Position numbers and translations under genes: made by a program
Shown: positions 36,627-52,775 of the stretch, piece by piece
Numbering within the stretch: the stretch's first letter is position 1
Layout of the letters: each line of letters starts with the position of its first letter
The notes under the pieces: model-generated
The model's input: the letters and a program-made list of their open reading frames with translations, nothing else
What the model was told of the DNA's origin: nothing
Databases searched by the model: none
IMG/VR virus record: IMGVR_UViG_3300010151_000007
Coordinates: 36,327 to 100,326 of that record
Length of the DNA: 64,000 bases
From: a virus
Reading direction: 5' to 3' (one strand)

Positions 36627-37946
36627 ATGTCACTTTACAAGTTTGACAAAAACGATATCCTTCGAAATGTAATCAAGACTCACCCACAAAGTGAGTTTTT
36701 CATTTATAACTCGAAGATTTACATAAATAATGAAATGAATATCAGTGGGGCGTTCACTGGTTCTCAATTTGGTGCCCCAACAGGTTTTGTGAGTCTTTAT
36801 GAATACAATGTTGACCGCAAGGAAACATCAACAGGTCGTGTGATTGGAACGGACGCCGCCCCCGACACTGGTTTGATTTATCCGTTTGTGGTTAAGAATA
36901 GTTCTCACACTTCGTTCAAGACAATGACTGACGAGGAATATGCTTCGAAGCCGTATGGTAGTTATCTATCGGGTAGTTATCGCCTGACTTCTTCCATTCG
37001 ACGAAAGTATTTTCCAGCTAATCACTTAACTTCTTTGGGTGCTCAAAATGCATCAAAATTTATTGAAAACACTTCACTAGCCTCTCTGGCAGAACACGCT
37101 TTCAATATCAAGGGCACAATATCAGGTTCAGAGATATCGGCTTTAAAACAAACTCTTAACTTCTACACGAGGTTAAGCCCACATTATGCCTATTCTTCTT
37201 CGTTTGGCGATAAGAGTTTGCAGGTTGTAAACCTAATTTCAATTCCATCGATTGTATACGGCTCTTCAATTAAGAAAGGCACGGTGGATTTGAGGTTTTA
37301 TATCACTGGTACTTTAGTAGGGAGACTTCAGGACACAAGACAGAACGGAGAGTTGATAGAAACCACGGGCTCTAGTGTTGATTCTATTGCTGGCGTCGTA
37401 CTTTACAACGAAGGATTTCTGCTATTAACTGGAAGTTGGAACATGGGTTCAACAAGTAACTCAATCGACTTCATTGGGAATAACGTTTCAGGCGATAAAT
37501 CTCAAGCCAAATGGATCTACTTTGGTGTTGGCGCTCAAGACAGCACGGCGTCCGCCGACAATGGTGGTTCATTAGCGCCCTCTAGGGCTTCTGCTAGCTG
37601 TCTGACGACGTTCCAGGGTACCCACTATGTCCCGACCCTCACCATGTTCGCACACGCCAAGAAGGGGCATCTGAACCACTCTAACAACCCCACCTATATT
37701 AAGTATGGGCAAAATACCACATTTACCAGTGGCACCTACTTTTTCAAGGAACCGGAGTTGGATATTAAGAATATCGTGAGTTCCTCTTACTCGACGGTCA
37801 CCGCAAGTTTCGCGAAGCATACATATATTTCACAAGTCGGAATCTATGATGAACAGAAAAGACTAATTGCGGTTGCAAATGTTTCTAAACCGGTTAAGAA
37901 GACAGAGGAAAGAGATTTTACTTTTAAGTTGAAGATCGATTTATGA
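36627..37946 (+). CDS. Baseplate/tail structural protein, paralog of 35521-36606
   Basis: IKKGT, GVVLYNEG, LNHSNNPTY, SQVGIYD...LIAVANVSKP. Confidence 0.65.
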   Translation: MSLYKFDKNDILRNVIKTHPQSEFFIYNSKIYINNEMNISGAFTGSQFGAPTGFVSLYEYNVDRKETSTGRVIGTDAAPDTGLIYPFVVKNSSHTSFKTMTDEEYASKPYGSYLSGSYRLTSSIRRKYFPANHLTSLGAQNASKFIENTSLASLAEHAFNIKGTISGSEISALKQTLNFYTRLSPHYAYSSSFGDKSLQVVNLISIPSIVYGSSIKKGTVDLRFYITGTLVGRLQDTRQNGELIETTGSSVDSIAGVVLYNEGFLLLTGSWNMGSTSNSIDFIGNNVSGDKSQAKWIYFGVGAQDSTASADNGGSLAPSRASASCLTTFQGTHYVPTLTMFAHAKKGHLNHSNNPTYIKYGQNTTFTSGTYFFKEPELDIKNIVSSSYSTVTASFAKHTYISQVGIYDEQKRLIAVANVSKPVKKTEERDFTFKLKIDL

Positions 37947-38404
37947 TGAAAAAGATGCTGAATGAATGGAAACAGTATTTGCGAGAAGAGGAAGAGGATT
38001 GGAAGCCCTCTGGGGAGGAAATGATGTTCCCTGCGAAGTTTCTATTTTCCCATATGGGGGAATACAGAACAGAACAAAGGTGGAAAGACTTTGCGAAGCT
38101 TTCAGGCGAGGAGAAAATGAAGTGGGCTCGGTCGGTAAAACTCGACGAACCTGTTGAGATTACTGTTTTCTCTGATGGTACTTTCGGCCACGGCGATGGA
38201 CATCATCGGGTTATGGCGGCGAAAATCTTGGATGTTGAAATACCCATTGTCATATCCAGAAACAAATTGAAAGACCGCGACCCCGAGTTGTGGACAGTTT
38301 GGCTCAACTCCGTCAGACAAGGAAAACACCCAAAAGAGTTAAATCCCGAAGGATATATTGTTCGCAGTTTGGAACAGTTTAGGCGCATGGAAAAGGAGCG
38401 TTAA
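37943..38404 (+). CDS. ParB/sulfiredoxin N-terminal-like protein with acidic leader
   Basis: EPVEI...GDGHHRVMAAKIL..IP. motif; N-terminus MKKMLNEWKQYLREE. Confidence 0.6.
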   Translation: MMKKMLNEWKQYLREEEEDWKPSGEEMMFPAKFLFSHMGEYRTEQRWKDFAKLSGEEKMKWARSVKLDEPVEITVFSDGTFGHGDGHHRVMAAKILDVEIPIVISRNKLKDRDPELWTVWLNSVRQGKHPKELNPEGYIVRSLEQFRRMEKER

Positions 38405-38407
38405 AGT

Positions 38408-38932
38408 ATGATCTTAGGGCTTGACATAAGTACAAGTATAACTGGGTACACCGTGATGGACGGTAAAGGAGCTATCGTCGAAAATGGTGCCTGGGATATG
38501 CGCAACAAAAGATATTTTGATGATCTCATGGACAAAGCCAAGTTTATTAAAGAGCAGTTAAAAGAGTTGTCGGTAACTTATTCAATAAAAGAAATCTACA
38601 TTGAGAAGTCTTTACAGTCTTTCAGATCTGGATTCTCTTCTGCAAAAACATTGTCAACGCTTTCCAGCTTCAACGGAATCGTGAGTTGGATGTGCTATGA
38701 GGAATATGGGATGAAGGCCGAGTACATCGCCGCCACCACTGCCCGCAAATTATGCGGCATCAGGATTCCCAAAGGTCAAAAAGCGAAACAAGTTGTTTTG
38801 CAGTATTTACTTGACAACGAGCCCTCTTTCGTGATAAGTTATACAAGAGCGGGAAATCCTAAACCCGACTCTTACGATCGTGCTGACAGCATAGTGATCG
38901 CAAAAGCAGGGTTATGCAAGAAGAAAAACTAA
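38408..38932 (+). CDS. RuvC-like Holliday junction resolvase
   Basis: MILGLDISTSITGY, IYIE, D..D (DRADSIVIA) acidic catalytic set. Confidence 0.85.
   Translation: MILGLDISTSITGYTVMDGKGAIVENGAWDMRNKRYFDDLMDKAKFIKEQLKELSVTYSIKEIYIEKSLQSFRSGFSSAKTLSTLSSFNGIVSWMCYEEYGMKAEYIAATTARKLCGIRIPKGQKAKQVVLQYLLDNEPSFVISYTRAGNPKPDSYDRADSIVIAKAGLCKKKN
38811..38840 (+). promoter_or_regulatory. Possible sigma70-type promoter for primase, inside the resolvase gene
   Basis: TTGACA(38811)-N18-TAAGTT(38835) with TGn extension; about 70 nt before the primase start. Confidence 0.4.
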
Positions 38933-39843
38933 AGATACTTAAAAACGTATTAGGGAATTTTTATCACAGCGGGCAGGAATGTTTATTTCACTGTCCGTTT
39001 TGTGATCATAGGAAAAAGAAACTTTCAATTAACCTGAAGAAATCAGTGTTTAAGTGCTGGACGTGTGGCGTCAGCGGCAAGAATCTTGGTTTCTTGGTTC
39101 GAAAGTTTGGCAACACTGACCAGAAAGTAGAATGGGGGAGATATGATCAGCATGTTGATTTGCTTGATTTTGATAATCTTTTTGGAGATACTGAAACGCT
39201 GGAAGCCAGAATAGTAAGACTCCCCGAAGAGTTTGTGAGTTTGGCGAATTTAAACGTCTCCTTATCGGCCCGAATGGCGCGGAAATATCTTTTCTCAAGA
39301 GGTCTGACTAAAGCAGACATTCTAAAATGGAAAATAGGATATGCTCCAAGCGGCGAGTATGCTGGTAGGATCATTGTACCTTCGTTCGATATCGAAGGAA
39401 AATTAAACTTCTTCGTATCGAGAACATACACAAAGCAATACCCGACTTACATGATTCCGGACGCAAGCAAAGACGTGATTTTCAACGAATTAACGATTGA
39501 TTGGGAACGGGACATCACAATTGTGGAAGGGGTTTTTGATGCGATAAAAGCTGACAACTCGATCCCCCTGCTTGGATCCTCGCTTAAAAAAGAGAGTTAC
39601 ATATTGGAAAAGATTGCAGAGCACAAAAGCAACGTGTTCCTTGCTCTCGATCGCGATGCTCAAAAGAAGGCGCAAAGAATGATAAGACTATTTAATCTAT
39701 ATGGAATAGAAGTATCACAACTGGAACTGGGAAAGTACGACGACGTCGGCGAAATGTCCAAAGAGGAATTCCAGGGATTCAAGAATTCATCACAAATCAT
39801 GGATTTTGAAAACTACTTAATTAGTAAGATTGGAGCACTATAG
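38914..39843 (+). CDS. DNA primase (CHC2 zinc finger + TOPRIM)
   Basis: CPFCDH...FKCWTC, YL.SRG, RIIVP, IVEGVFDA, LALDRDA, DVGEM. Confidence 0.92.
   Translation: MQEEKLKILKNVLGNFYHSGQECLFHCPFCDHRKKKLSINLKKSVFKCWTCGVSGKNLGFLVRKFGNTDQKVEWGRYDQHVDLLDFDNLFGDTETLEARIVRLPEEFVSLANLNVSLSARMARKYLFSRGLTKADILKWKIGYAPSGEYAGRIIVPSFDIEGKLNFFVSRTYTKQYPTYMIPDASKDVIFNELTIDWERDITIVEGVFDAIKADNSIPLLGSSLKKESYILEKIAEHKSNVFLALDRDAQKKAQRMIRLFNLYGIEVSQLELGKYDDVGEMSKEEFQGFKNSSQIMDFENYLISKIGAL
39812..39819 (+). promoter_or_regulatory. Candidate late promoter ACTACTTA
   Basis: At the end of primase, 25 nt before ATG 39845, which heads three leader-bearing small genes. Confidence 0.6.
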
Positions 39844-39844
39844 A

Positions 39845-40144
39845 ATGAAAATAACTAAAGAGAAACTATTAACCATCATTCGTGAAGAAAAAGCAATCCT
39901 TGATCGGGAAGAAAAAGGCTTGTTAAACGAATCGACTTTAAACGAAGTAGATGTAGCAGATATGGACACTCTGGAAAAGTTGATGATTGTTGGTCGCGGG
40001 GTTTACAAGATGGTTGCGACATTGGGACTTCCAACGGCTTACGCAGTTTTCATGGTCTATGCTTTGGAAAGGGCAACAGGTAAGAGAATCCTCAATGATA
40101 AAGAGAGAGAGGAGCTTAAAGAAGAGAGTGAGGGTCAATTATGA
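39845..40144 (+). CDS. Small protein with MKITKEKL..IIREE leader and a hydrophobic segment
   Basis: GGAG SD favours start 39845 over 39830; leader shared with 40141, 40545, 52133. Confidence 0.7.
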   Translation: MKITKEKLLTIIREEKAILDREEKGLLNESTLNEVDVADMDTLEKLMIVGRGVYKMVATLGLPTAYAVFMVYALERATGKRILNDKEREELKEESEGQL

Positions 40145-40548
40145 AAATTAGCAAGACAACCCTAGAAGATTTAATTAAAGAAGAGTTTGATTCCCAATAT
40201 TCAAAAAGTTCTAAATTGCAGAAACGCTTTGAAATACAGGTGGGGAAACTGCTGGACAGAATTCATTCAATCGGAACACGGTACGCGGATTCTTTAACAT
40301 CCAAATTTTCAGGCACTCGCGTTAAAATCGATACTCGTAAAACAGATTATTTGCGTAAACTTCACGATCGCGCTCATTCCGCTACGGTTACCTGGGAAGG
40401 AACTATCGAGAAGATTGACTTCGATATTGAACAGATGCACGATGCTACGGAGATCGTTCTTTTTGCGACTGTCGTTTTAGATGAAATCCACGCCCAAGCT
40501 TTGGGAATGAATAAGATCGCCGTTGATACTAGGGGACTAAGCTTGTGA
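40141..40548 (+). CDS. Hypothetical protein with MKISK..L..LIKEE leader
   Basis: Overlapping start/stop, GAGG SD, shared leader. Confidence 0.7.
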   Translation: MKISKTTLEDLIKEEFDSQYSKSSKLQKRFEIQVGKLLDRIHSIGTRYADSLTSKFSGTRVKIDTRKTDYLRKLHDRAHSATVTWEGTIEKIDFDIEQMHDATEIVLFATVVLDEIHAQALGMNKIAVDTRGLSL

Positions 40549-40736
40549 AGTTTAAGAAAGCAGATATAAAAAAGATCATTAAAGAAGAATTCCGAACAAT
40601 TCTCCGAGAAGACAAACAAGCAGATACTTATCGCATGGCCGAAGTAATGGATGAATTATCTTCTATTATTGAACGATGGGACGAATCCCACCCTTATACA
40701 ATTGAAATCAGACGAATCATTGAATTGTGGTCGTGA
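40545..40736 (+). CDS. Small protein with MKFKK..IKKIIKEE leader (GTG start)
   Basis: GTGA overlap with the previous stop; shared leader. Confidence 0.65.
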   Translation: MKFKKADIKKIIKEEFRTILREDKQADTYRMAEVMDELSSIIERWDESHPYTIEIRRIIELWS

Positions 40737-40737
40737 C

Positions 40738-40766
40738 TTGCCAAGATGGTGTGAACGTGTTACATT
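40738..40766 (+). promoter_or_regulatory. Sigma70-type early/middle promoter, probably giving a leaderless mRNA
   Basis: TTGCCA(40738)-N17-TACATT(40761) with TGn extension; ATG at 40773 follows 6 nt after the -10 box, with no SD. Confidence 0.6.
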
Positions 40767-40772
40767 ATATAG

Positions 40773-40967
40773 ATGAAAGAGATCAAGGAGGGGGCACTCT
40801 GCACGGTTAGGTTCGTGGAGGGTGGTCTCTATACAGAAGAAATAGGCGTCGTAATGGCTGAATTGAAGAGGGTTAGACCTTTCGATGAAAGTCGATACGA
40901 TGTTTTCGTGGTTAGGCTAAAGAAAAATATGAAGTTCCCACGTCGTTATTTACATATGATGGAGTAA
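40773..40967 (+). CDS. Small hypothetical protein (SH3/KOW-like beta fold possible)
   Basis: IKEGALCTVRF...IGVVM...YDVFV; coupled to the next gene. Confidence 0.6.
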   Translation: MKEIKEGALCTVRFVEGGLYTEEIGVVMAELKRVRPFDESRYDVFVVRLKKNMKFPRRYLHMME

Positions 40968-43900
40968 TGTTGAAGCTAGCACACCTAAGTGACACCCATA
41001 TCCGGAATTACAAATATCACAAAGAATATAGAATGATATTTGACCAAATATACAATATTTTGAGGGAAGAAGAGCCCGATTATATCGTCCATTGTGGCGA
41101 TTTGGCACACACAAAGACTCAATTATCACCAGAATACTTCGATTTAGCGGCGGATCTCCTTCGAAAGTTGGCAGATATAGCGCCTTTGATCATCATTCCG
41201 GGTAATCATGATGGCAATTTGAAGAATGGTCATCGCCAAGATGCCATTACACCGATCGTTTCCGCATTGGAGCATGACAATATCCACTTCCAGAAGAAAT
41301 CGGGTGAATATTCGCCTGATGGTATTATTTCTTTTAATGTGTTGTCGGTGTTTGATGAAGAGAATTGGAAGAAGCCGAGTGATCCGAGCAAGATTAACAT
41401 CGCCCTGTATCATGGAGCCATTTCTGGTGTCAAAACTGACATCGGCTATATTATGGAACATGGTGATCACCCTGTCGACATCTTCGCCGATCATGATTTT
41501 GCATTTTTGGGGGACATTCACAAGACAAATCAGATTGTTGACACTGAAGGGAAATGTAGATATCCCGGTTCGACTGTGCAACAGAACTTTGGCGAGACTA
41601 ACGACAAGGGGTTGTTGATTTGGGAGATCAAGACAAAAGAAGATTTTACATGCCGCCACATCGCCGTGTCGAATCCGAAACCATTTGTTTCAATCCCGTT
41701 GACACCGAAGGGACGCCTGCCTCGTAAGCTGTCAATCCCACTCGGAGCGAGAATAAGAATAGTCTCGGAAACAAACACCTCTCTTGATGTAATCAAACGT
41801 GCTGTTGATGTTGTTAAACATAAGTTCAAGCCAGAAAGCGTGGCCTATCTAAATCGAGCTTCAAATCGAGTAGACGTTTCCAAAAGCATTTCAGATGTTG
41901 AGCACTTGAATCTTCGCGATGCAGCAGTTCAAGAGAAATTGATTCGCGAATACTTGGGCGATTATGAGGTCGAAGAGAACTTGATTGCCGAAGTCCTCGA
42001 ATTGAACAGGAAATATGCCAAAATTGCCGAGGAAGGTGAGGAGATTTCTAGAAATATCAATTGGGAAATTAATGATCTAGAATGGGACACTCTTTTTAAT
42101 TATGGGGAAGGCAATGCACTGGACTTCACGAAATTGAACGGCATCGTTGGATTGTTTGGAAAGAACTTTTCGGGTAAATCCAGTGTTGTTGACAGCCTTC
42201 TATACACCCTCTTCAACACGACGTCGAAGAACGAAAGAAAGAACTTGAATGTAATTAATCAAGCCCACGACGAAGGCTCTGGTACGGTCTCCATTTCCGT
42301 TGGGAACGAAAGATATTACATATCTCGTCAGTCAGCTAAATACACAAAGAAGCTCAAAGGGGAAACAACCCTGGAGGCAAAGACTGAATTAGAATTTTAC
42401 AAGATTGATGAGAACGGCGAGGTTGTAAGTTTGAATGGTCTGACGAGGAATGATACTGACAAGAATATTCGTAAAATGTTTGGCTCAAGTGAGGACTTCA
42501 TGTACACAAGTATGTCGACTCAATTGGATAGTCTCGCATTCATTCGGGAAGGTTCTACTAAAAGGAAAGAGATTCTTGCCAAATTCTTAGATTTGGAGAT
42601 CTTCGAAAAGAAGTTCAGATTGTCCAAAGAAGATTCGGTCGACATTCGCGGCGCTTTAAAAAGGTTAGAAGATCGAGATTATGATGAAGAGATAAACGAA
42701 GTCGAAGAAGAGATTCTTAAAAAAGCTTCCGCTCTAGAACATCAAGAGGGTCTTTGTGCAGAACACAAGACACTTCTGGAAGAACTGTCAAATGAGTTGA
42801 GTATCGTGGAACAGAAGATCAATAATGCTCCAACGAAGATTATTGACATTCATTCGATTCGTACTCAAATCAAAGATTCAGAGATAAGTGTATCCTCTAT
42901 GAAAGACCAAAACAGAACTTTTGAGCAGGAAATAGAAGATTCAGAAGAAATACTCCTGAAGGCTAAAAAGTCTATTTCTGAAATCGATCACGAAGAGATG
43001 TATAGGAAGGTTGAGATCCTTGATGCAAGGGGGGACGCTTTTGATACGTTGCGAGATTCGATTATTGAACTGGAAGAGCGCCTTGAAAGAAAGAAAAAGA
43101 AGAAGAAAATTCTTTCCCAAGTGCCTTGTGGGGATAAGTTTCCAACCTGTAAATTCATCCGTGATGCGGTGGTGGCTGAAACTCACATCCCAGATATCAA
43201 AAAATCTATTCACACAAAGACTCTAGAAATGCGCGAACTAGCTGTTGAGCTTTTTAGTGAGGAGCAGCCGCGCCTCAAGGTAGAACAATACGAGGCATTG
43301 GTGAATATCGAGACCAAAGAAGAAAAGACTTTGAGTGAAACAAGGTTGGGTGTTGAAAGAAACATATCAAAAATCCTTCAGCTAAATTCCGTTCTCAAAG
43401 GTTTGAAGACAGAAGAACAGGAATATGAAGTAAACAAAGAAGTGATTGAGAATTACGAAGCCTTAGTTATGAAGAAAGAGTTTCTTTCAAATCAGACTGA
43501 ACAATGTCAAGACAATTTGGAAAACTGTGATAAAGAGATTTTGAAACTTCATCGCGAAGGTGGTTCGCTATCACAGAAACTTGAAAACCTTAAAGAATTG
43601 AAGAAAGAGTATCATACACTCCAGACTGAATTTGCTGCCTATGATTTGTTCATGCGTTGCATGCATAGTAATGGAATTGCATACGATATCATTAAAAAGA
43701 ATCTGCCAATCTTGAATCAAGAGATCGCGAAGATTCTTGCTAACTTGACCGACTTTGAAGTCTTCTTTGAGGAGAATGGCAATCGTTTGGACATCTTTAT
43801 TAAACATCCAAAATATGAACCAAGAGCTTTATCTATGGCGTCTGGTGCTGAAAAGACAATGGCAGCTATGGCAATTCGTTTAGCCTTGTTGACTGTCTCA

Positions 43901-44110
43901 AGTTTGCCGACTTCCAACGTAATGATTCTCGATGAACCGGGTGTTTTCTTGGACGAGGAACACCTTCAGTCGTTTTCTCAAATGCTGGAAATGATTAAAA
44001 CAAAATTTAAGATCGTTATTCTTATTTCTCATCTGGAGAGTTTGAAAGACGTTGTTGATATGACGATCGATATAACCAAAAAAAATGGATATGCGTTCAT
44101 ACAACAGTAA
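40967..44110 (+). CDS. Fused Mre11/SbcD nuclease - Rad50/SbcC ATPase (gp47-gp46-like)
   Basis: N-terminal DTH, GD, GNHD, HG, GDIH metallophosphoesterase motifs; Walker A GKNFSGKSS, coiled coil, ASGAEK signature, ILDEP Walker B, ISH. Confidence 0.92.
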   Translation: MLKLAHLSDTHIRNYKYHKEYRMIFDQIYNILREEEPDYIVHCGDLAHTKTQLSPEYFDLAADLLRKLADIAPLIIIPGNHDGNLKNGHRQDAITPIVSALEHDNIHFQKKSGEYSPDGIISFNVLSVFDEENWKKPSDPSKINIALYHGAISGVKTDIGYIMEHGDHPVDIFADHDFAFLGDIHKTNQIVDTEGKCRYPGSTVQQNFGETNDKGLLIWEIKTKEDFTCRHIAVSNPKPFVSIPLTPKGRLPRKLSIPLGARIRIVSETNTSLDVIKRAVDVVKHKFKPESVAYLNRASNRVDVSKSISDVEHLNLRDAAVQEKLIREYLGDYEVEENLIAEVLELNRKYAKIAEEGEEISRNINWEINDLEWDTLFNYGEGNALDFTKLNGIVGLFGKNFSGKSSVVDSLLYTLFNTTSKNERKNLNVINQAHDEGSGTVSISVGNERYYISRQSAKYTKKLKGETTLEAKTELEFYKIDENGEVVSLNGLTRNDTDKNIRKMFGSSEDFMYTSMSTQLDSLAFIREGSTKRKEILAKFLDLEIFEKKFRLSKEDSVDIRGALKRLEDRDYDEEINEVEEEILKKASALEHQEGLCAEHKTLLEELSNELSIVEQKINNAPTKIIDIHSIRTQIKDSEISVSSMKDQNRTFEQEIEDSEEILLKAKKSISEIDHEEMYRKVEILDARGDAFDTLRDSIIELEERLERKKKKKKILSQVPCGDKFPTCKFIRDAVVAETHIPDIKKSIHTKTLEMRELAVELFSEEQPRLKVEQYEALVNIETKEEKTLSETRLGVERNISKILQLNSVLKGLKTEEQEYEVNKEVIENYEALVMKKEFLSNQTEQCQDNLENCDKEILKLHREGGSLSQKLENLKELKKEYHTLQTEFAAYDLFMRCMHSNGIAYDIIKKNLPILNQEIAKILANLTDFEVFFEENGNRLDIFIKHPKYEPRALSMASGAEKTMAAMAIRLALLTVSSLPTSNVMILDEPGVFLDEEHLQSFSQMLEMIKTKFKIVILISHLESLKDVVDMTIDITKKNGYAFIQQ

Positions 44111-44135
44111 TTACTGTATGGGAGGTTTTATCCTT

Positions 44136-44354: not shown

Positions 44355-44357
44355 ACA

Positions 44358-45210: not shown

Positions 45211-45608
45211 TGGGCACCTACGGAACTAACAATACTCATAATATTGCACGCCTTGAGCACGCAATTCAAGAGAAGTATGGGCCTGATGCCATAAAGACTC
45301 CAACTTCAGAATGGGGCGAAGAGAAAGAGAAGAAGTTTTTAGAACAATCTAAAACTCTAAACAAGAAGCTTCAAAAATCTATGGAGAAGGATGAACGCCA
45401 AGAGACAGACGGCGTTTTAATTTCGAAAAAACTACTTAGTAGAGAAGCTGAAGAGAGAATTTGCCCGGTTTGCAATAAATATTCTTTTGACACGAAAGAC
45501 AGCGTTTATATGAACAAGTTTGAGTGTTGCAGGATGTGTTATATCCAATGGGTAGAGGATCGAGAAAAACGCTGGAAATCTGGCTGGCGGCCAAGTAAAG
45601 AGGAATAA
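45210..45608 (+). CDS. Hypothetical protein with C4 zinc finger
   Basis: CPVC...CCRMCYIQWVE.R..RW.SGWRP. Confidence 0.7.
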   Translation: MGTYGTNNTHNIARLEHAIQEKYGPDAIKTPTSEWGEEKEKKFLEQSKTLNKKLQKSMEKDERQETDGVLISKKLLSREAEERICPVCNKYSFDTKDSVYMNKFECCRMCYIQWVEDREKRWKSGWRPSKEE

Positions 45609-45614
45609 AACAAA

Positions 45615-46142
45615 ATGTCAACTTTAGATATTATTAGAGGAATCGCACAAGCTGCTGCTAACGCATATGACGGCGCGCTTGACGACAAAGGCGAGAAATT
45701 AGAAATCGGACTCAAGAGAGACGAGGGTCATGCAATTTTGGACTCCCGTGTTATTGATGGGTTTGTTGTTTCTTTTCATGGAAATATGCTTTGCTTGAAA
45801 TACCAAGCAGAATGCAAGATTTCCGAAGTCCACAAGCCTGGGTTTGAAGACGATGTTAATCAGCGTCTTGCAAGCATTGTCAAGTTCCTTAAAAAAGAAT
45901 ACAAGAAGATTACTAGCGACAGTCTTAGTTTGAAGATGGAAGATGAGCCTGTGATTAATGTTCAATACATTTCCAGAGTCCGTACAGATATTCAAGCACA
46001 CTGTTTTTATGTAATCGGAAATATTGATAGCGAGCCGATCAAGGGTGAATCCCGCGATTCAATCGAATCAAGCTTTAAGAGTTTTGTCGAACAGGGTGGT
46101 TGGGGCGGCAAGAAAGCTCCAAACGATACTAGAAAAGGCTGA
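45615..46142 (+). CDS. Hypothetical protein upstream of terminase
   Basis: AGAGG SD; coupled to terminase. Confidence 0.7.
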   Translation: MSTLDIIRGIAQAAANAYDGALDDKGEKLEIGLKRDEGHAILDSRVIDGFVVSFHGNMLCLKYQAECKISEVHKPGFEDDVNQRLASIVKFLKKEYKKITSDSLSLKMEDEPVINVQYISRVRTDIQAHCFYVIGNIDSEPIKGESRDSIESSFKSFVEQGGWGGKKAPNDTRKG

Positions 46143-47728
46143 TGGCAAGACTAACTAAAAAACAAACAGCCCACGAGCTAATGAAGTGCGGTAAAGATCC
46201 CGCCTACTTCATCAAGAACTATGTGAGGATTTCCCACCCAACTCGTGGTGTCATTCCTTTTAACTTATTCCCGTTTCAGGAAGATGTTATTCATGAGTTT
46301 GGTAATCATCGTTTCAATATTGCGCTGAAGGCACGCCAGCTTGGCCTGTCCACCACAGTCGCAGGGTATGCCCTGTGGATGCTTTTGTTTTATAGAGACA
46401 AAAACATTCTGGTTGTCGCCACAAAGCGAGATACTGCCGGTAACTTGTTGAAGAAAGTTCGCCAAATGTATGACCGCCTTCCAAAGTGGATGAAGATTTC
46501 AGATATTGCAATCGATAACAGGTATGAATTCAGATTAAAGAATGGCTCTGAAATGAAGGCATCAGCAAGCTCTAGTGACGCCGGACGTTCCGAAGCACTC
46601 TCGATGCTCATCGTGGACGAAGCGGCCCACGTAGACGGCCTAGATGACCTGTGGGCTGCTCTTTATCCTACCTTGTCGACTGGTGGGCGTTGTATCGCCC
46701 TTTCCACTCCGAATGGCGTTGGCAACTGGTTTCACAGGAATTATACGTCCGCCGAAAACGGCGTAAACGTTTTCAACCCAATCAAACTACTTTGGAATAT
46801 CCACCCAGAACGTGATCAATCTTGGTTCGAAAACGAAACCAGAAACATGCCCCCTCGCCAGATTGCACAAGAGCTTGAATGCTCCTTCAATGCTTCTGGC
46901 GATACTGTTATCAGTCCGAAAGATATTGCACATTTGTTTGAAATGACCAAAGAACCAGAATACAAAACCGGCTTTGATCACAATTTATGGATTTGGGAAA
47001 ACAGAATAGAAGAGTTTACTTACTTCATATGTGCCGACGTTGCGAGAGGTGATGGAAATGATAGTTCCGTTTTCCACGTTGTCAAAGCAGAAAAGATGGA
47101 AATTGTTGCAGAGTATCAAGGCAAACCTTCTTTGAGTGATTTCTCACACTTGCTGGCGAGCACCGGCAAAGAATATGGTAACTGCCTACTTGTGGTTGAG
47201 GTTAACAATCTTGGTATTTCTGTCATCGAAAAGCTGCAAGAATTAGAATACCCAAACATGTATTATGCGGCCAAGTCGACTCACGAATATGTTGAAAGCC
47301 ATATGGCGGCTCACACAAGTAATGTAGTTCCAGGTTTTACTACATCATCCAAGACGCGCCCGCTGATTATCGCAAAGATGGAAGAATTCATTAGAAACCG
47401 AATGGTGAAATCCTATTCATCTAGGTTTGTCGATGAAATCAAGACATTCATTTGGCAAAACGGAAAACCACAAGCAATGCGCTCATATCACGACGATTTG
47501 ATCATGGCTTTTGCAATTGCGTGCTGGGTCCGCGATACGGCAATCACTGTCAACAAAACTGAAATAGAATACCAGAAAGCAATGGTTATGTCTATTGGTC
47601 GAACTGAAAGAAAAATACACACTACGATTCCTGGCCAGACCGGTCACATCTATCGTGGTGGTGTTTCTGAAAAGGCGTATGCCGAAAGAGAAAAGTATCG
47701 TAAATTCATTTGGTTACTGAAGGGTTAA
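46142..47728 (+). CDS. gp17: Terminase large subunit (gp17-like)
   Basis: DPAYFIKNY, LFPFQ, LKARQLGLST (Walker A), IVDEAAH (Walker B), STPNG, QELEC.F, DVARG, HDDLIMA. Confidence 0.95.
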   Translation: MARLTKKQTAHELMKCGKDPAYFIKNYVRISHPTRGVIPFNLFPFQEDVIHEFGNHRFNIALKARQLGLSTTVAGYALWMLLFYRDKNILVVATKRDTAGNLLKKVRQMYDRLPKWMKISDIAIDNRYEFRLKNGSEMKASASSSDAGRSEALSMLIVDEAAHVDGLDDLWAALYPTLSTGGRCIALSTPNGVGNWFHRNYTSAENGVNVFNPIKLLWNIHPERDQSWFENETRNMPPRQIAQELECSFNASGDTVISPKDIAHLFEMTKEPEYKTGFDHNLWIWENRIEEFTYFICADVARGDGNDSSVFHVVKAEKMEIVAEYQGKPSLSDFSHLLASTGKEYGNCLLVVEVNNLGISVIEKLQELEYPNMYYAAKSTHEYVESHMAAHTSNVVPGFTTSSKTRPLIIAKMEEFIRNRMVKSYSSRFVDEIKTFIWQNGKPQAMRSYHDDLIMAFAIACWVRDTAITVNKTEIEYQKAMVMSIGRTERKIHTTIPGQTGHIYRGGVSEKAYAEREKYRKFIWLLKG

Positions 47729-47733
47729 TATAA

Positions 47734-49707
47734 ATGGCAAGAGGAAGAAATACGAGAAATCCAAGGTCAGAGCTATACAAACAACTTACAAGGTTGTTCT
47801 CTGGTCCCATGGTCAACAGGAGAAGTCAAACTGGTCGCCGTTTACGTCGTCACCAATTAGACAAGTTTGCATCACGTTTCCGTTCTGCAAGTGGGCAGCA
47901 GTTTACTCGTTCTACATATTTCCCATTCCAGAACATGCAGCACTCAATGATCAACAACCATAGCCGTGCAGAACGGTATACTGATTTTGATCAAATGGAG
48001 TACACACCAGAGATTGCGTCTGCCTTGGATATTTATGCAGACGAAATGACAACCCACTCTTCATTGCAACCAATGCTTAATGTCAAGTGTTCAAACGAAG
48101 AGATTAAAGCTGTCTTATATTCCCTGTACCACAACATCATGAACGTTGAGCATAACTTATTCGGCTGGTGTCGAACAATGTGTAAGTATGGTGACTTCTT
48201 TTTGTATTTGGATATCGAAGAAAACAAGGGGATCATCAAAACTATTGGCCTTCCTTCACACGAAGTCGAAAGAATAGAAGGCGAGGACAAAGAAAATCCG
48301 AACTATATTCAGTTCCAATGGAATTCAGGCGGCCTGACGCTTGAGAATTGGCAGTTAGCTCATTTTCGTATTTTAGGAAATGACAAATATGTCCCTTATG
48401 GTTCCTCTGTTCTGGAAGCGTCTCGTCGTATCTGGAGACAGCTAACGCTTCTTGAGGACGCAATGATGGCTTATCGTATCGTTCGCTCGCCTGAAAGAAG
48501 AGTTTTCTATATTGATGTTGGCTCTATTGCTCCTGCTGAAGTTGAGCAGTACATGCAAAAAGTTATCACTCAAATGAAAAGAGGATCCATTGTTGATGAA
48601 CAAACTGGCCGAGTTGACTTGCGCTACAACCCTCTTGGTGTAGAAGAAGATTTCTACATTCCAGTTAGAGGCGACACTAGTTCAAAAATTGAAACACTCC
48701 CCGGCGGCTCATTTACTGGTGATATCGATGACGTTGAATACTTGAGGGACAAGTTGTTCTCTGCTCTGAAGATTCCTGCTTCTTACATTTCAAGAGGCGC
48801 TGGCGCAGAAGAGGACAAAACAACATTAGCTCAAAAGGATATCCGTTTCGCAAGAACGATCCAAAGACTTCAAAGGGCGGTCGTTTCAGAGTTGGAAAAG
48901 ATTGGCATCATTCACCTCTATACAATGGGTTTCAAGGGCGATGATTTACTATCATTCAAATTGAGTTTGAATAACCCATCGAAGATTGCAGAACTCCAAG
49001 AGTTGGAACACTGGAACACTAAGTTCGATGTTGCAGCAGCAGCAACAGAAGGATTCTTCTCTAGAAGATGGGTTGCAGAACACTTGTTTAATATGTCTAA
49101 TGAAGAGTTCTTACGCAACCAGAGAGAGCTATTCTATGATCGTAAGTTCGATGCCAACTTGGCAGCCGTCGCAGAAATGGAACAAGAGAGTGCGGCAGGC
49201 GGCCTTGGCGGCCTTGGTGGTATGGGAGGTGGCGCTGGCGATATCGGTGATATCGGCGACCTTGGTGATTTAGGGGACGAATTAGGGCTTGGCTCCGGTG
49301 CTGGTGACGCCCCCGACCTAGACGTGGGCGGTGATGATGATAGCGTTCTTTTGGCGACACCCGATGACGAAGGTCCGTTACAGGAAGCGGAGCCCAACGA
49401 AGGCGACGAGTATACACGCCCCGGCTGGAAAGGTAAGACTCACAAAAAGACGAAAGGAAATCCAGGTTCGAAAGCAAGGAAGAAGAACTACAAAGCTGCG
49501 TATTCTCGTGAAAAAGCCTCTCCCACTAGAAGGAACACTCACCACGGATATAACGAATTGAATTCCTTGGTTCAAGGGCTTTATGAAGGTCGGACAGCTA
49601 ATTATATTATTGATGAAGAAGAAGGTGAGATTTTGAATGCCCAATCGGACTTCAATAGATTAATCGAAGGGATGGAGAAGTTCAATTCAACGGAGAACCA
49701 AGAATGA
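47734..49707 (+). CDS. gp20: Portal protein (gp20-like) with Gly/Asp-rich tail
   Basis: PEIASALD, LEDAMMAYRIVRSPERRVFYIDVG, EDFYIP.R, IETLPGG, DV.YLR.KLF.ALKIP.S. Confidence 0.95.
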   Translation: MARGRNTRNPRSELYKQLTRLFSGPMVNRRSQTGRRLRRHQLDKFASRFRSASGQQFTRSTYFPFQNMQHSMINNHSRAERYTDFDQMEYTPEIASALDIYADEMTTHSSLQPMLNVKCSNEEIKAVLYSLYHNIMNVEHNLFGWCRTMCKYGDFFLYLDIEENKGIIKTIGLPSHEVERIEGEDKENPNYIQFQWNSGGLTLENWQLAHFRILGNDKYVPYGSSVLEASRRIWRQLTLLEDAMMAYRIVRSPERRVFYIDVGSIAPAEVEQYMQKVITQMKRGSIVDEQTGRVDLRYNPLGVEEDFYIPVRGDTSSKIETLPGGSFTGDIDDVEYLRDKLFSALKIPASYISRGAGAEEDKTTLAQKDIRFARTIQRLQRAVVSELEKIGIIHLYTMGFKGDDLLSFKLSLNNPSKIAELQELEHWNTKFDVAAAATEGFFSRRWVAEHLFNMSNEEFLRNQRELFYDRKFDANLAAVAEMEQESAAGGLGGLGGMGGGAGDIGDIGDLGDLGDELGLGSGAGDAPDLDVGGDDDSVLLATPDDEGPLQEAEPNEGDEYTRPGWKGKTHKKTKGNPGSKARKKNYKAAYSREKASPTRRNTHHGYNELNSLVQGLYEGRTANYIIDEEEGEILNAQSDFNRLIEGMEKFNSTENQE

Positions 49708-50531
49708 AGCTTAAGCATAATAAAAAAAGAAATACCGCTTTTTTGTTTGAAGCGTTGATTCGCGAAATGGCCAAGACGGTTCTTTCCGAAAAGAAGGACG
49801 TGCGCGAGAAGATTAAAACAATCTTGAAAGAGCATTTTAAGAAAGGCTCCCTTCTGCATACAGAGCTTGGGCTTTATAAAACCATTTATGAAACCAGGGG
49901 CGCAGATCTCTACACAGCCGAAAGACTTGTACAAGAAGTTCAGAAATCTCACGGTGCAATGAGTAAAAAGGATTTGTTCAACGAACAGTCTGTCTTGATA
50001 AACGAAATCAACAAAACAGTAACTGCTGAAGTTTATAACAACTTTGTCCCAAGTTATAAAGGTTTGGCAACAATTAATCAACTCTTTCAAGAGGGGTTGA
50101 AGCCAAAACAAAGGGTCGCTCTGGAAAGAAAACTGATTCGGTCTATGATCACTAGAGACAACTCGTCACACGAGCTTCAAGAAATGGCCCACACCGATAG
50201 TTTGGTTTATAACTCGTTTGTCAAAAGATTCAACGAGACATACGACACCTCACTTCTTTCTGAACAGAAAGAGTTGTTGAACAAGTACATCATGTCTGTC
50301 GGGGATAATGGATTGCAATTTAAGGTTTACTTGAATTCTCAAATCGGAACCTTGAAAGAAAGGGTAGAAGAAGCGTTCTCTTTGGAAGAAATCAAGGACA
50401 GTGAAATCCTCCAAGAACGTTTGGGACAAGTAAGAGACAGATTGGATTCTTTTTCGACGAAGAGAATTGATTCTGAAATGATAGAGAATGTTCTGAAGAT
50501 TCAGAATCTTGTTAAGGAACTATACGACTGA
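49704..50531 (+). CDS. Head-module hypothetical protein (possible prohead core)
   Basis: MKLKHNKKRNTAFLFEAL; directly after portal. Confidence 0.65.
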   Translation: MKLKHNKKRNTAFLFEALIREMAKTVLSEKKDVREKIKTILKEHFKKGSLLHTELGLYKTIYETRGADLYTAERLVQEVQKSHGAMSKKDLFNEQSVLINEINKTVTAEVYNNFVPSYKGLATINQLFQEGLKPKQRVALERKLIRSMITRDNSSHELQEMAHTDSLVYNSFVKRFNETYDTSLLSEQKELLNKYIMSVGDNGLQFKVYLNSQIGTLKERVEEAFSLEEIKDSEILQERLGQVRDRLDSFSTKRIDSEMIENVLKIQNLVKELYD

Positions 50532-51088
50532 TGGCAATCAATATTCATGTTGGTGATTCGCCGCCACCCGAAGAGGTGGAGCAGATTGAACAGAAGCCAA
50601 TTGCAAAAATACAACTCAAAATAAGAAAGACTCTCGACGGCGATATCATGATCTTCGATCATGCAGACATCGATATTGTGGTTATGCCTGAAAAGATGAA
50701 GCTTATAGCTTTTGCGAAAGACGTGACAAGTGAATTTGTATATGGAGCCGAAAATAGAATGTTTCAGTTTCTTAGCAAAAAAGGTATTATCGATCCAGCC
50801 ACGGTTCAAGGCGGAAACATATATGGTTCTATAGAAGGTATGATAAGAACGTCTGATGAATTGCATCCGATTAAAATACTACTTCTCAATATCTCAAAGT
50901 TCATTGACGAAGAGCGTCCATATTTTGAGTTCGTTGAAGACTATGAAGAAATGCAGACCGACCGCTTCGTTGATCCTGATGCAGAGGAGTCGACGGAACT
51001 CGGCGAAGTTCCACATAAGAAACAGAAAGGTCACTTGCGTCCCGGTGGTGGAGCAAATGGTACTTACTGGCAATCATATACATATTGA
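50531..51088 (+). CDS. Hypothetical protein
   Basis: Coupled ORF in the head module. Confidence 0.65.
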   Translation: MAINIHVGDSPPPEEVEQIEQKPIAKIQLKIRKTLDGDIMIFDHADIDIVVMPEKMKLIAFAKDVTSEFVYGAENRMFQFLSKKGIIDPATVQGGNIYGSIEGMIRTSDELHPIKILLLNISKFIDEERPYFEFVEDYEEMQTDRFVDPDAEESTELGEVPHKKQKGHLRPGGGANGTYWQSYTY

Positions 51089-51113
51089 GAAATAGAAATG
51101 AAAAAACTACCGG

Positions 51114-51473
51114 ATGGTAAGCATTGAGGTATTTGTGGATTTAATTTGGTTCATTCTGTCGTCAACAGGCTTGACAACACTTCTCGTATATGCTACAATT
51201 TTTGACCCTATCCGCCCATCGAAAGAATGGTTGAATGGATGGGGTCATTTATTTCACTGCCCCTTATGTTTAGGTTTTTGGGCAGGTATATTTATGTTTG
51301 CCGTTAACCCTTGGACGGAACTATTTACTTTTGACTACACTGTCACAAACAGTTTGATATGTGGCTGTGTTAGTTCTTTGAGTGCGTATGCATTCAATGT
51401 TATGCTGGGAGACGAAGGTTTAAACATGGTACTTAAAGGAGGTGATCATGACAACTTTAATTCAAACAGTTAG
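51114..51473 (+). CDS. Membrane protein with CxxC (DUF1360-like)
   Basis: Three hydrophobic segments; LFHCPLCLGFWAG. Confidence 0.55.
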   Translation: MVSIEVFVDLIWFILSSTGLTTLLVYATIFDPIRPSKEWLNGWGHLFHCPLCLGFWAGIFMFAVNPWTELFTFDYTVTNSLICGCVSSLSAYAFNVMLGDEGLNMVLKGGDHDNFNSNS

Positions 51474-51516
51474 ATGGGGCTTAATGCCCGTTCGTAGATG
51501 CTGCAAAGGTTCGTAA
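51448..51516 (+). CDS. Uncalled 22-aa ORF MTTLIQTVRWGLMPVRRCCKGS
   Basis: Preceded by AAAGGAGGTGATC (51435-51447); fills the gap before the prohead protease. Confidence 0.55.
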   Translation: MTTLIQTVRWGLMPVRRCCKGS

Positions 51517-51533
51517 CTTAGAGGTAACTTTTA

Positions 51534-52136
51534 ATGTCAGGAAAAGTATTATTACGTGAATTTTATGCTCTGTGCGACGGCGGCGTGTGTCAGGACTATT
51601 TGACTGAATCTGAAAAGATGGAAATGTCGAATGGAACTGGCTTTTACATGACCGGTGTTATGCAAAGAGCAGATCTGAAAAATGGGAACGGTAGAGTGTA
51701 TCCGAGAAAAGTTCTAGAACGTGAAATCGAAAACTATAAAAGGTTAGTAGAAGAACGTAGAGCTTTGGGAGAACTAGACCATCCAGACGATCCCGTTATC
51801 AATTTACGCAATACTTCTCATCTTGTCACCAAAATTTGGTGGGAAGGAAACGACGTTAAAGGTAAGGTGAAAGTCCTTAACACTCCTTCGGGTAAAGTGT
51901 TACAAGAGCTTGCCAAGTCTGGTGTTACATTAGGAATATCTTCACGGGGCTTAGGCTCCACAAGTCAGGGGCACAATGGTCTGATGGTGGAAGATGATTT
52001 CCAATTAATTTGTTTTGACTTTGTATCCGAACCTTCTACTCCCGGCGCTTTCATGATGAAAGAAGTAAAAGATGGATACCCAATTGAAAAGTCTGATCGT
52101 ATTTTCCGTGCACTCAATGAGGTAATCAAGAAGTGA
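51534..52136 (+). CDS. gp21: Prohead core protease (gp21-like)
   Basis: NGNGRVYP, ALGELDHP, SH, TPSG, GISSRGLGS, DFVSEPSTPGA. Confidence 0.95.
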   Translation: MSGKVLLREFYALCDGGVCQDYLTESEKMEMSNGTGFYMTGVMQRADLKNGNGRVYPRKVLEREIENYKRLVEERRALGELDHPDDPVINLRNTSHLVTKIWWEGNDVKGKVKVLNTPSGKVLQELAKSGVTLGISSRGLGSTSQGHNGLMVEDDFQLICFDFVSEPSTPGAFMMKEVKDGYPIEKSDRIFRALNEVIKK

Positions 52137-52351
52137 AAATTACAAAAGAGAAATTGAAGAAAGTGATTTTAGAGGCATACAATACTCAAATGACTCATTC
52201 AGATGCATCTGATTTGAAAGATGTGGCCAGAGCGATCAAAAGAGTTTTGGAAAGCGAGAACTTGTCCCCTCAAGGCCAAGAGGATATGACAATAGCTTTC
52301 GAAATGATTAAAAGAGTGTTGAACAGTGCACATTATGCTAGGACAAGATAA
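52133..52351 (+). CDS. Small protein with MKITKEKLKKVILE leader (GTG start)
   Basis: First 8 residues identical to the 39845 protein; GAGG SD. Confidence 0.7.
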   Translation: MKITKEKLKKVILEAYNTQMTHSDASDLKDVARAIKRVLESENLSPQGQEDMTIAFEMIKRVLNSAHYARTR

Positions 52352-52355
52352 CTAA

Positions 52356-52775
52356 ATGAACAAGAAACAATTGAAAGAAATCATGAGACCCCTTGTCAAA
52401 GAACTCATGATGGAAGCGTTGATTCAGGAAGGGTTGTTGTCGAACATTGTTTCAGAAGTGAATAAAGGTCTCCGCGAAAGCGACGATCGCTTAATCAGAG
52501 CACACGCTTCAGAAACAATGCCAGAAAGAGACAATACCGAGACGGTCAGTGAACCGGCTCGTTTGCCTCGCAAGAAAAGTAAAAGAAACGATCTCCAAGA
52601 GCAAAGACAAAGAATGCTTAAGGAGATGTCAGAAAGTGCATATGGCGGCGTAGATATATTTGAAGGCGTCGATCCCATACCGCAGCAAGGCACTGGTCAG
52701 CAGTCGAAGTTCGGAGCCTTGAGAGACCGAGACCCTAATGATTCTGGCATTGATTTGTCACAATTTGGTTTTTGA
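52356..52775 (+). CDS. Head-module hypothetical protein
   Basis: MNKKQLKEIMRPLVKE leader-like start; LIQEGLLS.IVSEV. Confidence 0.7.
   Translation: MNKKQLKEIMRPLVKELMMEALIQEGLLSNIVSEVNKGLRESDDRLIRAHASETMPERDNTETVSEPARLPRKKSKRNDLQEQRQRMLKEMSESAYGGVDIFEGVDPIPQQGTGQQSKFGALRDRDPNDSGIDLSQFGF

Follow-up and report, generated by a model that had tools for sequence, protein, structure and literature searches.

Two N-terminal leaders on small proteins of an uncultured marine T4-like phage as candidate capsid-targeting propeptides

The DNA analyzed here (the window) comprises 64,000 nucleotides, positions 36,327 to 100,326 of the IMG/VR virus record IMGVR_UViG_3300010151_000007, a contig representing ~55% of the genome of an uncultured ~190-kb T4-like marine phage. 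A preliminary description had pointed out six small genes in this window with one shared N-terminal leader. All six N-termini were found at the coordinates it gave, with true starts at 37946, 39845, 40141, 40545 (GTG), 52133 (GTG) and 52356; the genes are named by these positions below. The array of 39845, 40141 and 40545 is preceded by an octamer of its own, as described before, which lies 25 nt upstream of 39845. Gene 40141 overlaps its upstream gene by ATGA, and the GTG start of 52133 overlaps the stop codon of a prohead protease gene. The features are compiled in Table 1.

Table 1. Genes and elements of the window (slashes mark predicted cuts; bit scores are from a class B HMM independent of this genome)
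Feature	Position	Strand	Evidence
Class A (variant) gene, leader MKKMLNEWKQYLRE, acidic linker and ParB/sulfiredoxin-fold cargo, 152 aa	37946..38404	+	
Octamer ACTACTTA ahead of the three-gene class B array, candidate late promoter	39812..39819	+	
Class B gene, 99 aa, MKITKEKLLTIIRE/E	39845..40144	+	17.4 bits, independent HMM
Class B gene, 135 aa, MKISKTTLEDLIKE/E	40141..40548	+	23.3 bits, independent HMM
Class B gene, 63 aa, GTG start, MKFKKADIKKIIKE/E	40545..40736	+	14.8 bits, independent HMM
T4 gp21-type prohead serine protease (Peptidase_S77)	51534..52136	+	Pfam PF03420, E 2.1e-30
Class B gene, 72 aa, MKITKEKLKKVILE/A	52133..52351	+	16.8 bits, independent HMM
Conserved head-module protein and candidate component of the prohead core, 139 aa, N-terminus MNKKQLKEIMRPLVKE class-B-like	52356..52775	+	
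Acidic 366-aa protein, putative scaffold (T4 gp22 position)	53717..54817	+	Position, composition, upstream octamer
Gp23-type major capsid protein with N-terminal propeptide	54838..56568	+	Pfam Gp23, E 7.8e-75

Comparison of HMMs revealed two distinct N-terminal leaders on small phage proteins rather than one, class A with the consensus MKLLLENWRKYLxE and class B with the consensus MKITKxxLxxIIKEE. The HMMs showed no cross-matches, and a single family was rejected; length, hydrophobic spacing and the terminal Glu are all that the classes have in common. A class B HMM trained solely on IMG/VR contigs, with this genome left out, recovered the four class B genes with the scores listed in Table 1, and the runner-up in the six-frame translation (157,216 residues) reached 5.1 bits. 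The strict class A HMM gave gene 37946 a score of only 4.2 bits; it is assigned to class A as a variant because orthologues of its cargo bear canonical MKLLLENWRKYL leaders at the same position. Five further class A genes and one orphan leader copy lie outside the window at the left contig end. The N-terminus of 52356 gave 4.1 bits with the class B HMM, which is not significant. The protein is conserved in all relatives; within its family the helical N-terminus and motifs at the C-terminus are conserved and the linker varies, and homologues adjoin the protease in at least 56 loci of relatives. Judged from its sequence, 52356 is a conserved head-module protein, the N-terminus of which merely resembles class B. 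The common leader proposed earlier thus holds for four class B genes and, as a class A variant, for 37946; two classes had been merged in it, and 52356 drops out as a leader bearer. That the protein bodies are unrelated was borne out, as leader-stripped proteins gave no BLASTP match below E 0.1.

The leader HMMs were used to scan the genome and its relatives, as the preliminary description had suggested. The matches were N-terminal: 394 of 397 class A matches and 118 of 120 class B matches lay at the start codon position (~200 loci), and no internal leader matches were found in six frames of this genome. Unique leader copies in IMG/VR numbered 333 for class A and 111 for class B. Glu at position 14 (E14) was present in all 111 class B copies vs 278 of the 333 class A copies, leaving 17% of class A without it, and position 12 was L/I/V. 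The information content of class A dropped from 2.3 to 0.5 and 0.2 bits over positions 14 to 16. Conservation of class B continued two residues beyond the predicted P1 Glu (E15 and a hydrophobic residue 16), so that either the exact cut site is uncertain or the helix would have a function after cleavage. As read from the sequences, the leaders are charged amphipathic helices with K/E/Q/N at every second to third position. A Sec/Tat signal peptide was rejected, since no hydrophobic core (~10 or more uncharged residues) follows a basic N-region.

In T-even phages, the capsid-targeting sequence (CTS) MKTYQEFIAE is carried by the internal proteins IPI-III and, like the short propeptides of Alt and gp24, is removed by the prohead protease gp21, according to passages in PMC5694885, PMC3012670 and 10.1101/2021.01.19.427310 that refer to Mullaney and Black 1996. 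All characterized S77 proteases cleave after Glu (PMC5694885), gp21 of T4 with a preference for I/L-x-E (PMC12991175). The T4 propeptides, taken from the T4 genome and a paper, all fit the pattern hydrophobic-x-x-hydrophobic-hydrophobic-x-E (MKTYQEFIAE; gp24, MAKINELLRE; Alt, MELITELFDE), and so does the gp23 site FGSFLTE/A, where gp23 is cut at FLTE/AEIGG. The pattern also fits WRKYLNE, LKQIIKE and the capsid site AKQLLQE/T of the phage studied here. Counting plain [LIVM]-x-E revealed only a modest enrichment (31 vs 19.4 +/- 3.6); the stricter T4-derived pattern, ending at residues 9–18, was applied instead. It occurred in 12 of 100 N-termini, compared with 3.46 +/- 1.72 (maximum 11 in 5000 trials) for internal windows.

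The 397 leader-bearing ORFs fell into 201 clusters of unrelated cargos, five of which bear either leader, and a complete relative contains ~25 leader genes. Median ORF lengths were 106 aa for class B and 194 aa for class A; mature class B proteins comprise 49–121 residues, and the mature cargos are neutral to acidic in charge. Cargo types include ADP-ribosyltransferases (ARTs), a ParB/Srx-like NTPase or nuclease, kinases, nucleotidyltransferases, RNA-repair-type enzymes and many orphans, and also NUDIX, 5′-nucleotidase, DnaJ and HAD proteins, whose usefulness in a capsid is not obvious. The ART cargo matches the folds of PARP, tankyrase and AcrIF11, with Pfam ART-PolyVal in homologues, and was found with class A, with another (class B-like) leader or without leader. 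Foldseek matched the 37946 cargo to Srx/ParB/Noc, and PHROG assigned it as ParB-like. In AF2 models of the ART and ParB/Srx cargos, the leader forms a low-confidence helix detached from a confident domain. For 37946, pLDDT values are 48–63 in the leader helix, below 50 in residues 14–20 and 83–97 in the domain (24–150), and in its orthologues the linker between leader and domain varies in length. One cargo is homologous to leaderless actinophage proteins from residue 22 on. Both the alignments and the models indicate that the leader is portable and located outside the cargo fold. The class B cargos of the window matched no PHROG or Pfam family, and the 99-, 135-, 63- and 72-aa proteins had no BLASTP homologues in ~200 related loci; a class A protein of 242 aa matched nothing in cultured phages.

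The gene neighborhood of the leaderless actinophage homologue was uninformative. A tblastn search of a cultured-phage collection with a 25-residue leader peptide, a query too short for this program, gave no match. Starts of the MKKSQLRQIIKEA type occur in a cultured relative, Flavobacterium phage vB_FspM_immuto. Literature searches with strings of both leaders yielded no paper and 'capsid targeting' combined with marine-phage terms nothing relevant; we found no published description of the two leaders.

The octamer ACTA[ACT]TTA occurs 22 times on the plus strand and once on the minus strand (9.3 expected). It is located 10–40 nt upstream of capsid, scaffold, neck, sheath and tube genes, and it precedes leader arrays here and in a complete relative; a matching strand bias was seen in relative G003. 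On this distribution, the octamer is a candidate late promoter, and the leader arrays may be expressed late. The leaders are also linked to the head module by position: in relatives, genes of both classes are concentrated directly downstream of the protease or in the 2 kb upstream of it. The S77 protease, present in all six IMG/VR records that bear leaders and have a completeness of 90% or more, has a conserved His and Ser aligning with the catalytic H85 and S140 of T4 and is 55% identical to that of vB_FspM_immuto. The latter phage also has an equivalent of 53717 at the corresponding place. This protein matched no Pfam or PHROG family; its position between protease and capsid genes, its composition and the upstream late octamer suggest a scaffold. 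A maturation site, LLQE/T, is predicted near residues 59–62 of the capsid protein, and in 21 relatives the capsid exhibits L-[KRQ]-E followed by conserved SSMAAGDVEGFA. The resemblance between the capsid propeptide MAQLLENQAKQLLQE and the class A leader was not significant (less than 3 bits with the class A HMM) and serves as a lead only. The 139-aa protein 52356 was rejected as a homologue of T4 gp68 (hhalign probability 0.1).

All indirect predictions of a T4-type capsid-targeting tag that could be computed came out as required. We propose, with a probability of about 0.6, that both leaders are T4-type capsid-targeting propeptides, representing a much enlarged version of the load-then-clip signal of T4. 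Leader-bearing proteins would be made late in infection alongside the head proteins, and the amphipathic helix of 14–16 residues would dock them on the scaffold or core inside the assembling Gp23-type shell. The gp21-type protease would then cut after the conserved Glu (class A, ...Y-L-x-E14; class B, ...I-I-K-E14). While the leader peptide exits, the mature cargo would remain in the head with the DNA and be delivered to the next host. Late expression, docking, cleavage, retention and injection are inferred. As the leaders behave like interchangeable modules, new cargo genes might be recruited through recombination at the leader. This would explain why leader genes stand in tandem, why one leader is an orphan and why the cargos are so very diverse. 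The earlier idea of a modular tag loading effectors into the prohead is thus partly supported: a strictly N-terminal and portable tag was recovered, and the single motif gave way to two classes, with which the N-terminus of a conserved candidate core protein had been merged. As the mature cargos are neutral to acidic, unlike the basic internal proteins of T4, 'injected effectors' would be a second layer of inference on top of 'prohead-targeted'.

It is unlikely that the leaders direct assembly components to the prohead core, for example gp67/gp68-like accessories or precursors of internal peptides that are degraded or expelled at maturation. Small class B proteins in or near the head module would suit this role, as would the 139-aa protease neighbor with its several [LIV]-x-E sites, and T4 breaks down gp22, gp67 and gp68 likewise (PMC5694885). 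However, many cargos fold confidently as enzymes (ART, ParB/Srx, kinases, nucleotidyltransferases) for which a structural role is implausible, and the cargo set is hypervariable among close relatives, unlike assembly parts; such a function may apply to a subset of the leader proteins. It is quite improbable that the leader is a handle acting elsewhere, either as a recognition helix for a shared partner (a chaperone, a modifying enzyme, a host target or the degradation machinery) or as a pro-sequence that blocks enzyme activity up to its removal by the late protease in the cytoplasm. Features specific to the capsid interpretation are the invariant Glu with L/I/V at −2, a spacing like that of T4, the octamer of late type and the grouping of leader genes at the protease. 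A handle would fit the generic binding capacity of amphipathic helices, the conservation of class B beyond the putative cut site and the likeness of the cargos to ordinary early or auxiliary enzymes, but no gene for an alternative partner was identified. A radical-SAM maturase (RiPP-like) was rejected as partner, PF04055 being absent from the contig and from three of four complete leader-bearing genomes; one of these four encodes a radical-SAM protein vs four of four for the S77 protease.

The conserved start might also be mainly a nucleotide-level element, such as a recombination junction, a cassette boundary or a translational-coupling signal, with the peptide as by-product. Codons 3–9 of class A are strongly non-random (CTC-CTA-CTT-GAA-AAT-TGG-CGA vs 9–24% usage in gene bodies). 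Codon 5 has T as its third base in ~87% of copies, which gives rise to an out-of-frame TGA, and the class A leader DNA contains stops in both alternative frames. Of 317 class A genes, 202 have an upstream ORF that ends at ATGA or at this TGA. The orphan leader is a 24-aa ORF at contig position 1615 that shares 33 identical nt with the copy at 1080, and shuffling of modules at conserved DNA cassettes is known from T4-like phages (PMC2839356). This codon conservation points to an additional or alternative role of class A at the nucleotide level. As the main function of the leaders, such a role is very improbable. In class B, synonymous sites are nearly free, with near-background variation, and amino acids are 90–100% conserved, so that selection acts on the peptide. 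Accordingly, MKITKEKL is encoded differently in 39845 and 52133 (ATA/ATT, ACT/ACA and CTA/TTG, starts ATG/GTG), as had been noted before. Even in class A, amino acids are conserved above third codon positions, and codons 10–14 are free. Given this peptide-level conservation, a DNA role would be an added layer and not the primary function.

If the leaders are T4-like propeptides, a 15-residue motif would flag injected or head-internal proteins of a large uncultured clade of ocean phages from sequence alone. These would be hundreds to thousands of unknown protein families acting in the first seconds of infection and prime candidates for counter-defense functions. Among phages that encode gp21-type proteases, the capsid-targeting principle of T4 would be an old and general one that can extend from a few cargos to dozens, and two new short peptides would be available for loading foreign proteins into phage heads. 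More tentatively, these abundant, uncultured phages could possess an address system with two interchangeable codes. It would fill the capsid, ahead of delivery with the DNA, with about one tenth of the gene products, dozens of enzymes including ADP-ribosyltransferases, ParB/Srx-like NTPases, kinases and RNA-repair modules. The class A DNA might double as a universal cassette junction, as stops in both alternative frames would allow insertion of new cargo in any frame by recombination, and the tag might serve as a sequence-only marker of the injected-effector repertoire.

The closest parallel is the CTS of T4. Both systems combine a homologous S77 protease with conserved catalytic residues, short N-terminal amphipathic leaders on otherwise unrelated, non-essential-looking proteins, a leader end of the form hydrophobic-x-x-hydrophobic-hydrophobic-x-Glu, variable arrays of cargo genes and an L-x-E maturation site in the capsid protein; one ADP-ribosyltransferase cargo parallels Alt. 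Unlike the 10-residue T4 sequence, the leaders described here comprise 14–16 residues, have no homology to MKTYQEFIAE beyond the motif and belong to two interchangeable classes, of which class A is also conserved in DNA. About 25 genes per complete genome are tagged, compared with three to five in T4; at least 10 Ip types have been reported across T-even phages (PMC12373910). The cargos are mostly enzymes or orphans and neutral to acidic, whereas those of T4 are small and basic. The present leaders are known from sequence and predicted structure.

In the giant phages phiKZ, 201phi2-1 and SPN3US, S77-family proteases act on propeptide-bearing inner-body and ejection proteins, which they cut at (S/A/G)-x-E (PMC5694885). 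There, too, many head-internal proteins are cut after Glu by a gp21 homologue, the SPN3US paralogues gp53 and gp54 have a conserved N-terminus, and propeptides were proposed as targeting signals. In contrast, most of these propeptides exceed 100 residues and are specific to one protein, their P3 residue is small (A/S/G) rather than L/I/V, and no single portable leader extends across hundreds of unrelated families. Polyvalent proteins and MuF-fused phage toxins, reportedly the subject of Iyer et al. 2017 and Jamet et al. 2017, overlap with the present cargos in their domains (ART-PolyVal, ParB-like, Zeta-toxin/kinase and papain-like toxin folds). Their effector domains are fused into a giant virion protein or to MuF, whereas each cargo described here is encoded separately, by a small gene that brings its own leader.

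Six N-termini had been ascribed in the preliminary description to one shared leader on unrelated small proteins, and all six were found where claimed. HMMs built from IMG/VR copies only and run on the six-frame translation of this genome upheld the common leader for four of the genes (class B; consensus in relatives MKITK[ST]QLKQIIKEE-hydrophobic), which scored 14.8-23.3 bits, the next match reaching 5.1 bits. The remaining two genes fall outside this class. The leader at 37946 is a variant of a second leader, class A (consensus MKLLLENWRKYLxE); it scored low with the strict class A model, and canonical class A leaders are present at the equivalent position in orthologues of its cargo. The protein at 52356 does not score as class B. 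Five further class A genes are located at the left end of the contig, outside the window; four left-end copies scored 23.8-35.2 bits. As had been proposed, the bodies are unrelated, since BLASTP of the leader-stripped proteins gave no similarity, and the two copies of MKITKEKL are written in different codons. A T4-leader pattern set a priori matched 12 of 100 N-termini compared with 3.5 +/- 1.7 in internal windows.

Features of the leader genes and the head module (L001, whole contig in contig coordinates; L202, Flavobacterium phage vB_FspM_immuto)
Feature	Sequence	Position	Strand	Remark
Peptidase_S77 (gp21-type) prohead protease	window	51534-52136	+	E 2e-30
Gp23-type major capsid protein	window	54838-56568	+	family match
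Capsid propeptide segment	window	54838-55030		MAQLLENQAKQLLQE
Putative scaffold gene	window	53717-54817
139-aa head-module protein	window	52356-52775		candidate prohead core protein
bS21-like ribosomal protein	window	53357-53632		phrog_21469, E 1.8e-10
Class B genes	window	39845, 40141, 40545, 52133
Variant class A gene	window	37946
Class A genes	L001	74, 451, 1080, 1710, 1997
Orphan class A leader	L001	1615-1689		MKLLLENWRKYLNERVLLPCSYYL, then stop
HAD/polynucleotide-kinase-like pair	L001	3086-4405, 4945-6477		38% identity
ACTA[ACT]TTA, examples	window	39812, 52779, 53683, 54813, 56641, 59460, 62497
Class-B-like start, 252 aa	L202	8454-9212		MKKSQLRQIIKEA...
Class-B-like start, 73 aa	L202	18621-18842		MKKSQIVKAVQEVLEE...

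The single viral contig of 100,326 bp, of which the window is the right 64 kb, carries about 100 genes, every one on the + strand. It encodes a T4-type head module with large terminase, portal, protease, major capsid protein and neck, sheath and tube genes, and its protease keeps the T4 catalytic residues H85 and S140. Within this module, a gene for a bS21-like ribosomal protein is situated between those of the protease and the putative scaffold. The gene at 52356 encodes a member of a family of 130-150 aa that adjoins the protease and is conserved across all relatives. Its class-B-like start belongs to a helical N-terminus (MKKSDLKxxIKPLVKECIxE in the alignment of homologues), behind which lie a hypervariable linker and two conserved motifs, DAYNGVDLFEGT and DSGVDISS; the copy of this contig lacks the final ~13 residues present in relatives. 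Because CheckV completeness is 55% and complete IMG/VR relatives measure 184-204 kb (with terminal repeats in three), the contig is about half a genome, and the real number of leader genes probably about twice the 11 seen.

In both leader classes, positions 8, 11 and 12 are hydrophobic, position 13 accepts any residue and position 14 is glutamate, the last in 111/111 class B and 278/333 class A copies. In class A the information content is 2.3 bits at position 14 and drops to 0.5 and 0.2 at the following positions, while conservation of class B extends over E15 and hydrophobic 16 and collapses thereafter. The resulting pattern, hydrophobic-x-x-hydrophobic-hydrophobic-x-Glu, fits WRKYLNE and LKQIIKE as well as the T4 internal-protein capsid targeting sequence (CTS) MKTYQEFIAE and, from the T4 genome record, gp24 (MAKINELLRE), Alt (MELITELFDE) and the gp23 cut FGSFLTE|AEIGG. 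All S77 proteases characterised so far cleave after Glu (PMC5694885), and T4 gp21 prefers I/L-x-E (PMC12991175). In the capsid protein of the contig, the place corresponding to the T4 maturation site is occupied by a conserved L-[KRQ]-E, with SSMAAGDVEGFA after it. Just ahead of this predicted site, the propeptide segment resembles class A MKLLLENWRKYLNE in LLEN, K10, L12 and the terminal E; the likeness is not significant, as the segment scored <3 bits with the class A HMM.

The nearest cultured relatives, Flavobacterium phage vB_FspM_immuto (protease 55% identical) and Microcystis phage Mel-JY01, are distant, and hundreds of closer ones with 62-70% protease identity exist in IMG/VR. A degenerate class A DNA pattern occurred in more than 119 viral contigs among the matches listed. 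In about 200 fetched loci the HMMs detected 397 class A and 120 class B copies (333 and 111 unique), 99% of which begin at a start codon. In the relatives, genes of both classes are concentrated around the protease, either in the 2 kb preceding it or immediately behind it. The complete 186-kb relative G003 harbors ~14 class A and 12 class B genes on a single strand, mostly in tandem arrays; one of these genes directly adjoins the protease. Clustering of 397 complete ORFs of at least 50 residues (BLASTP 1e-5) gave 201 cargo clusters, and in 5 of them either leader was found among the members. Moreover, the ADP-ribosyltransferase (ART)-type cargo of the contig gene at 74-451 is found behind class A, behind another leader rich in K and E, or without any leader. 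For the cargo at 1080, leaderless proteins of Gordonia, Microbacterium and Mycobacterium phages show homology that begins at its residue 22. Class-B-like starts were also noticed on two immuto proteins, the smaller encoded just upstream of its protease; being cultured, immuto offers a tractable system for tests of the tag.

Synonymous sites of the class B leader are nearly as variable as the gene bodies and its amino acids are 90-100% conserved, demonstrating selection on the peptide. Class A codons 3-9 are strongly biased (CTC-CTA-CTT-GAA-AAT-TGG-CGA), which is not the case for class B. In ~87% of class A copies, codon 5 has T as its third base (CTT 171, TTT 105, TTC 3); this T results in TGA (nt 15-17) in one alternative frame, and ATGA closes the other. 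Of 317 class A genes, 202 (149 + 53) follow an ORF that terminates at one or the other of these stops. Furthermore, an orphan class A leader forms an ORF of 24 codons that overlaps the end of the preceding gene, is identical over its first 33 nt to the leader at contig position 1080 and has the appearance of a scar left by recombination between leaders or by loss of a cargo. Codon bias, alternative-frame stops, upstream ORF ends and the orphan leader suggest that class A DNA may double as a recombination and gene-packing junction. Third codon positions of class A are less conserved than its amino acids, and the DNA role was therefore treated as an added layer.

Across the window, the octamer ACTA[ACT]TTA has 22 occurrences on the + strand against a single one on the - strand (9.3 expected), and G003 displayed the same bias (33 versus 4). 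It resides 10-40 nt upstream of capsid, scaffold, neck, sheath, tube and baseplate genes. As the preliminary description had noted, it also precedes the three-gene class B array at 39845; the class A gene at 1710 and several G003 arrays have it as well. As a candidate late promoter, it differs from that of T4 (TATAAATA) and would fit late expression of the leader arrays.

Pfam left the majority of 150 cargo representatives without assignment. The matches comprised kinases (AAA_33, Zeta toxin, Pkinase), GNATs, a poly(A)-polymerase-type nucleotidyltransferase, NUDIX, DnaJ, HAD/2H RNA-repair-type domains, ParB_N, NT5C and a papain-like toxin fold. Two cargos were folded with alignments. The 37946 protein was predicted to form a ParB/sulfiredoxin-like domain (pLDDT 83-97) with the leader as a detached helix (pLDDT 48-63) before a disordered acidic linker. 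The protein at contig position 74 was predicted to adopt an ADP-ribosyltransferase fold (Foldseek top matches PARP10, tankyrase and AcrIF11; E ~2e-3, probability 1.0) with a leader pLDDT <50; Pfam ART-PolyVal is on record for its homologues. Low confidence of the leader in both models argues against its being part of the folded domain. Within the HAD/polynucleotide-kinase-like paralogue pair, the 3086-4405 protein starts with MNNKYKQFLNE|S, a short leader of T4 length, and a full class A leader heads a homologue on another contig (L165:1215).

[quoted passage not shown] The main weaknesses of this model are the many cargos, some of them ordinary enzymes, their neutral to acidic charge, and the conservation of class B past the putative cut site. 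The leader may instead be a generic binding helix or a pro-sequence for activation of cytoplasmic pro-enzymes; this, however, leaves the motif, the linkage to the protease and the placement in the head module jointly unexplained. Degradation rather than delivery may be the fate of some small class B proteins, which would then be core components. A recognition tag for radical SAM enzymes was rejected, as radical SAM was found in one of four complete genomes and the protease in all four, and an element acting at the nucleotide level alone fails for class B.

In T-even phages, unrelated internal proteins have only the leader in common, which directs their packaging and is removed by gp21. Their Ip genes were found via this signal sequence, with 10 or more Ip types on record (PMC3012670, PMC12373910). 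A literature search for the leader strings found no paper containing either of them. The leader-tagged ART, known here from sequence and predicted fold, directly parallels T4 Alt, which is packaged with a CTS-type propeptide. The principle is well known from T-even phages; different here are the clade (uncultured, marine, T4-like, ~190 kb), leaders of other sequence and length in two interchangeable classes, the scale of ~25 genes per genome and hundreds of cargo families, the enzyme-rich cargo and the possible dual use of class A DNA.
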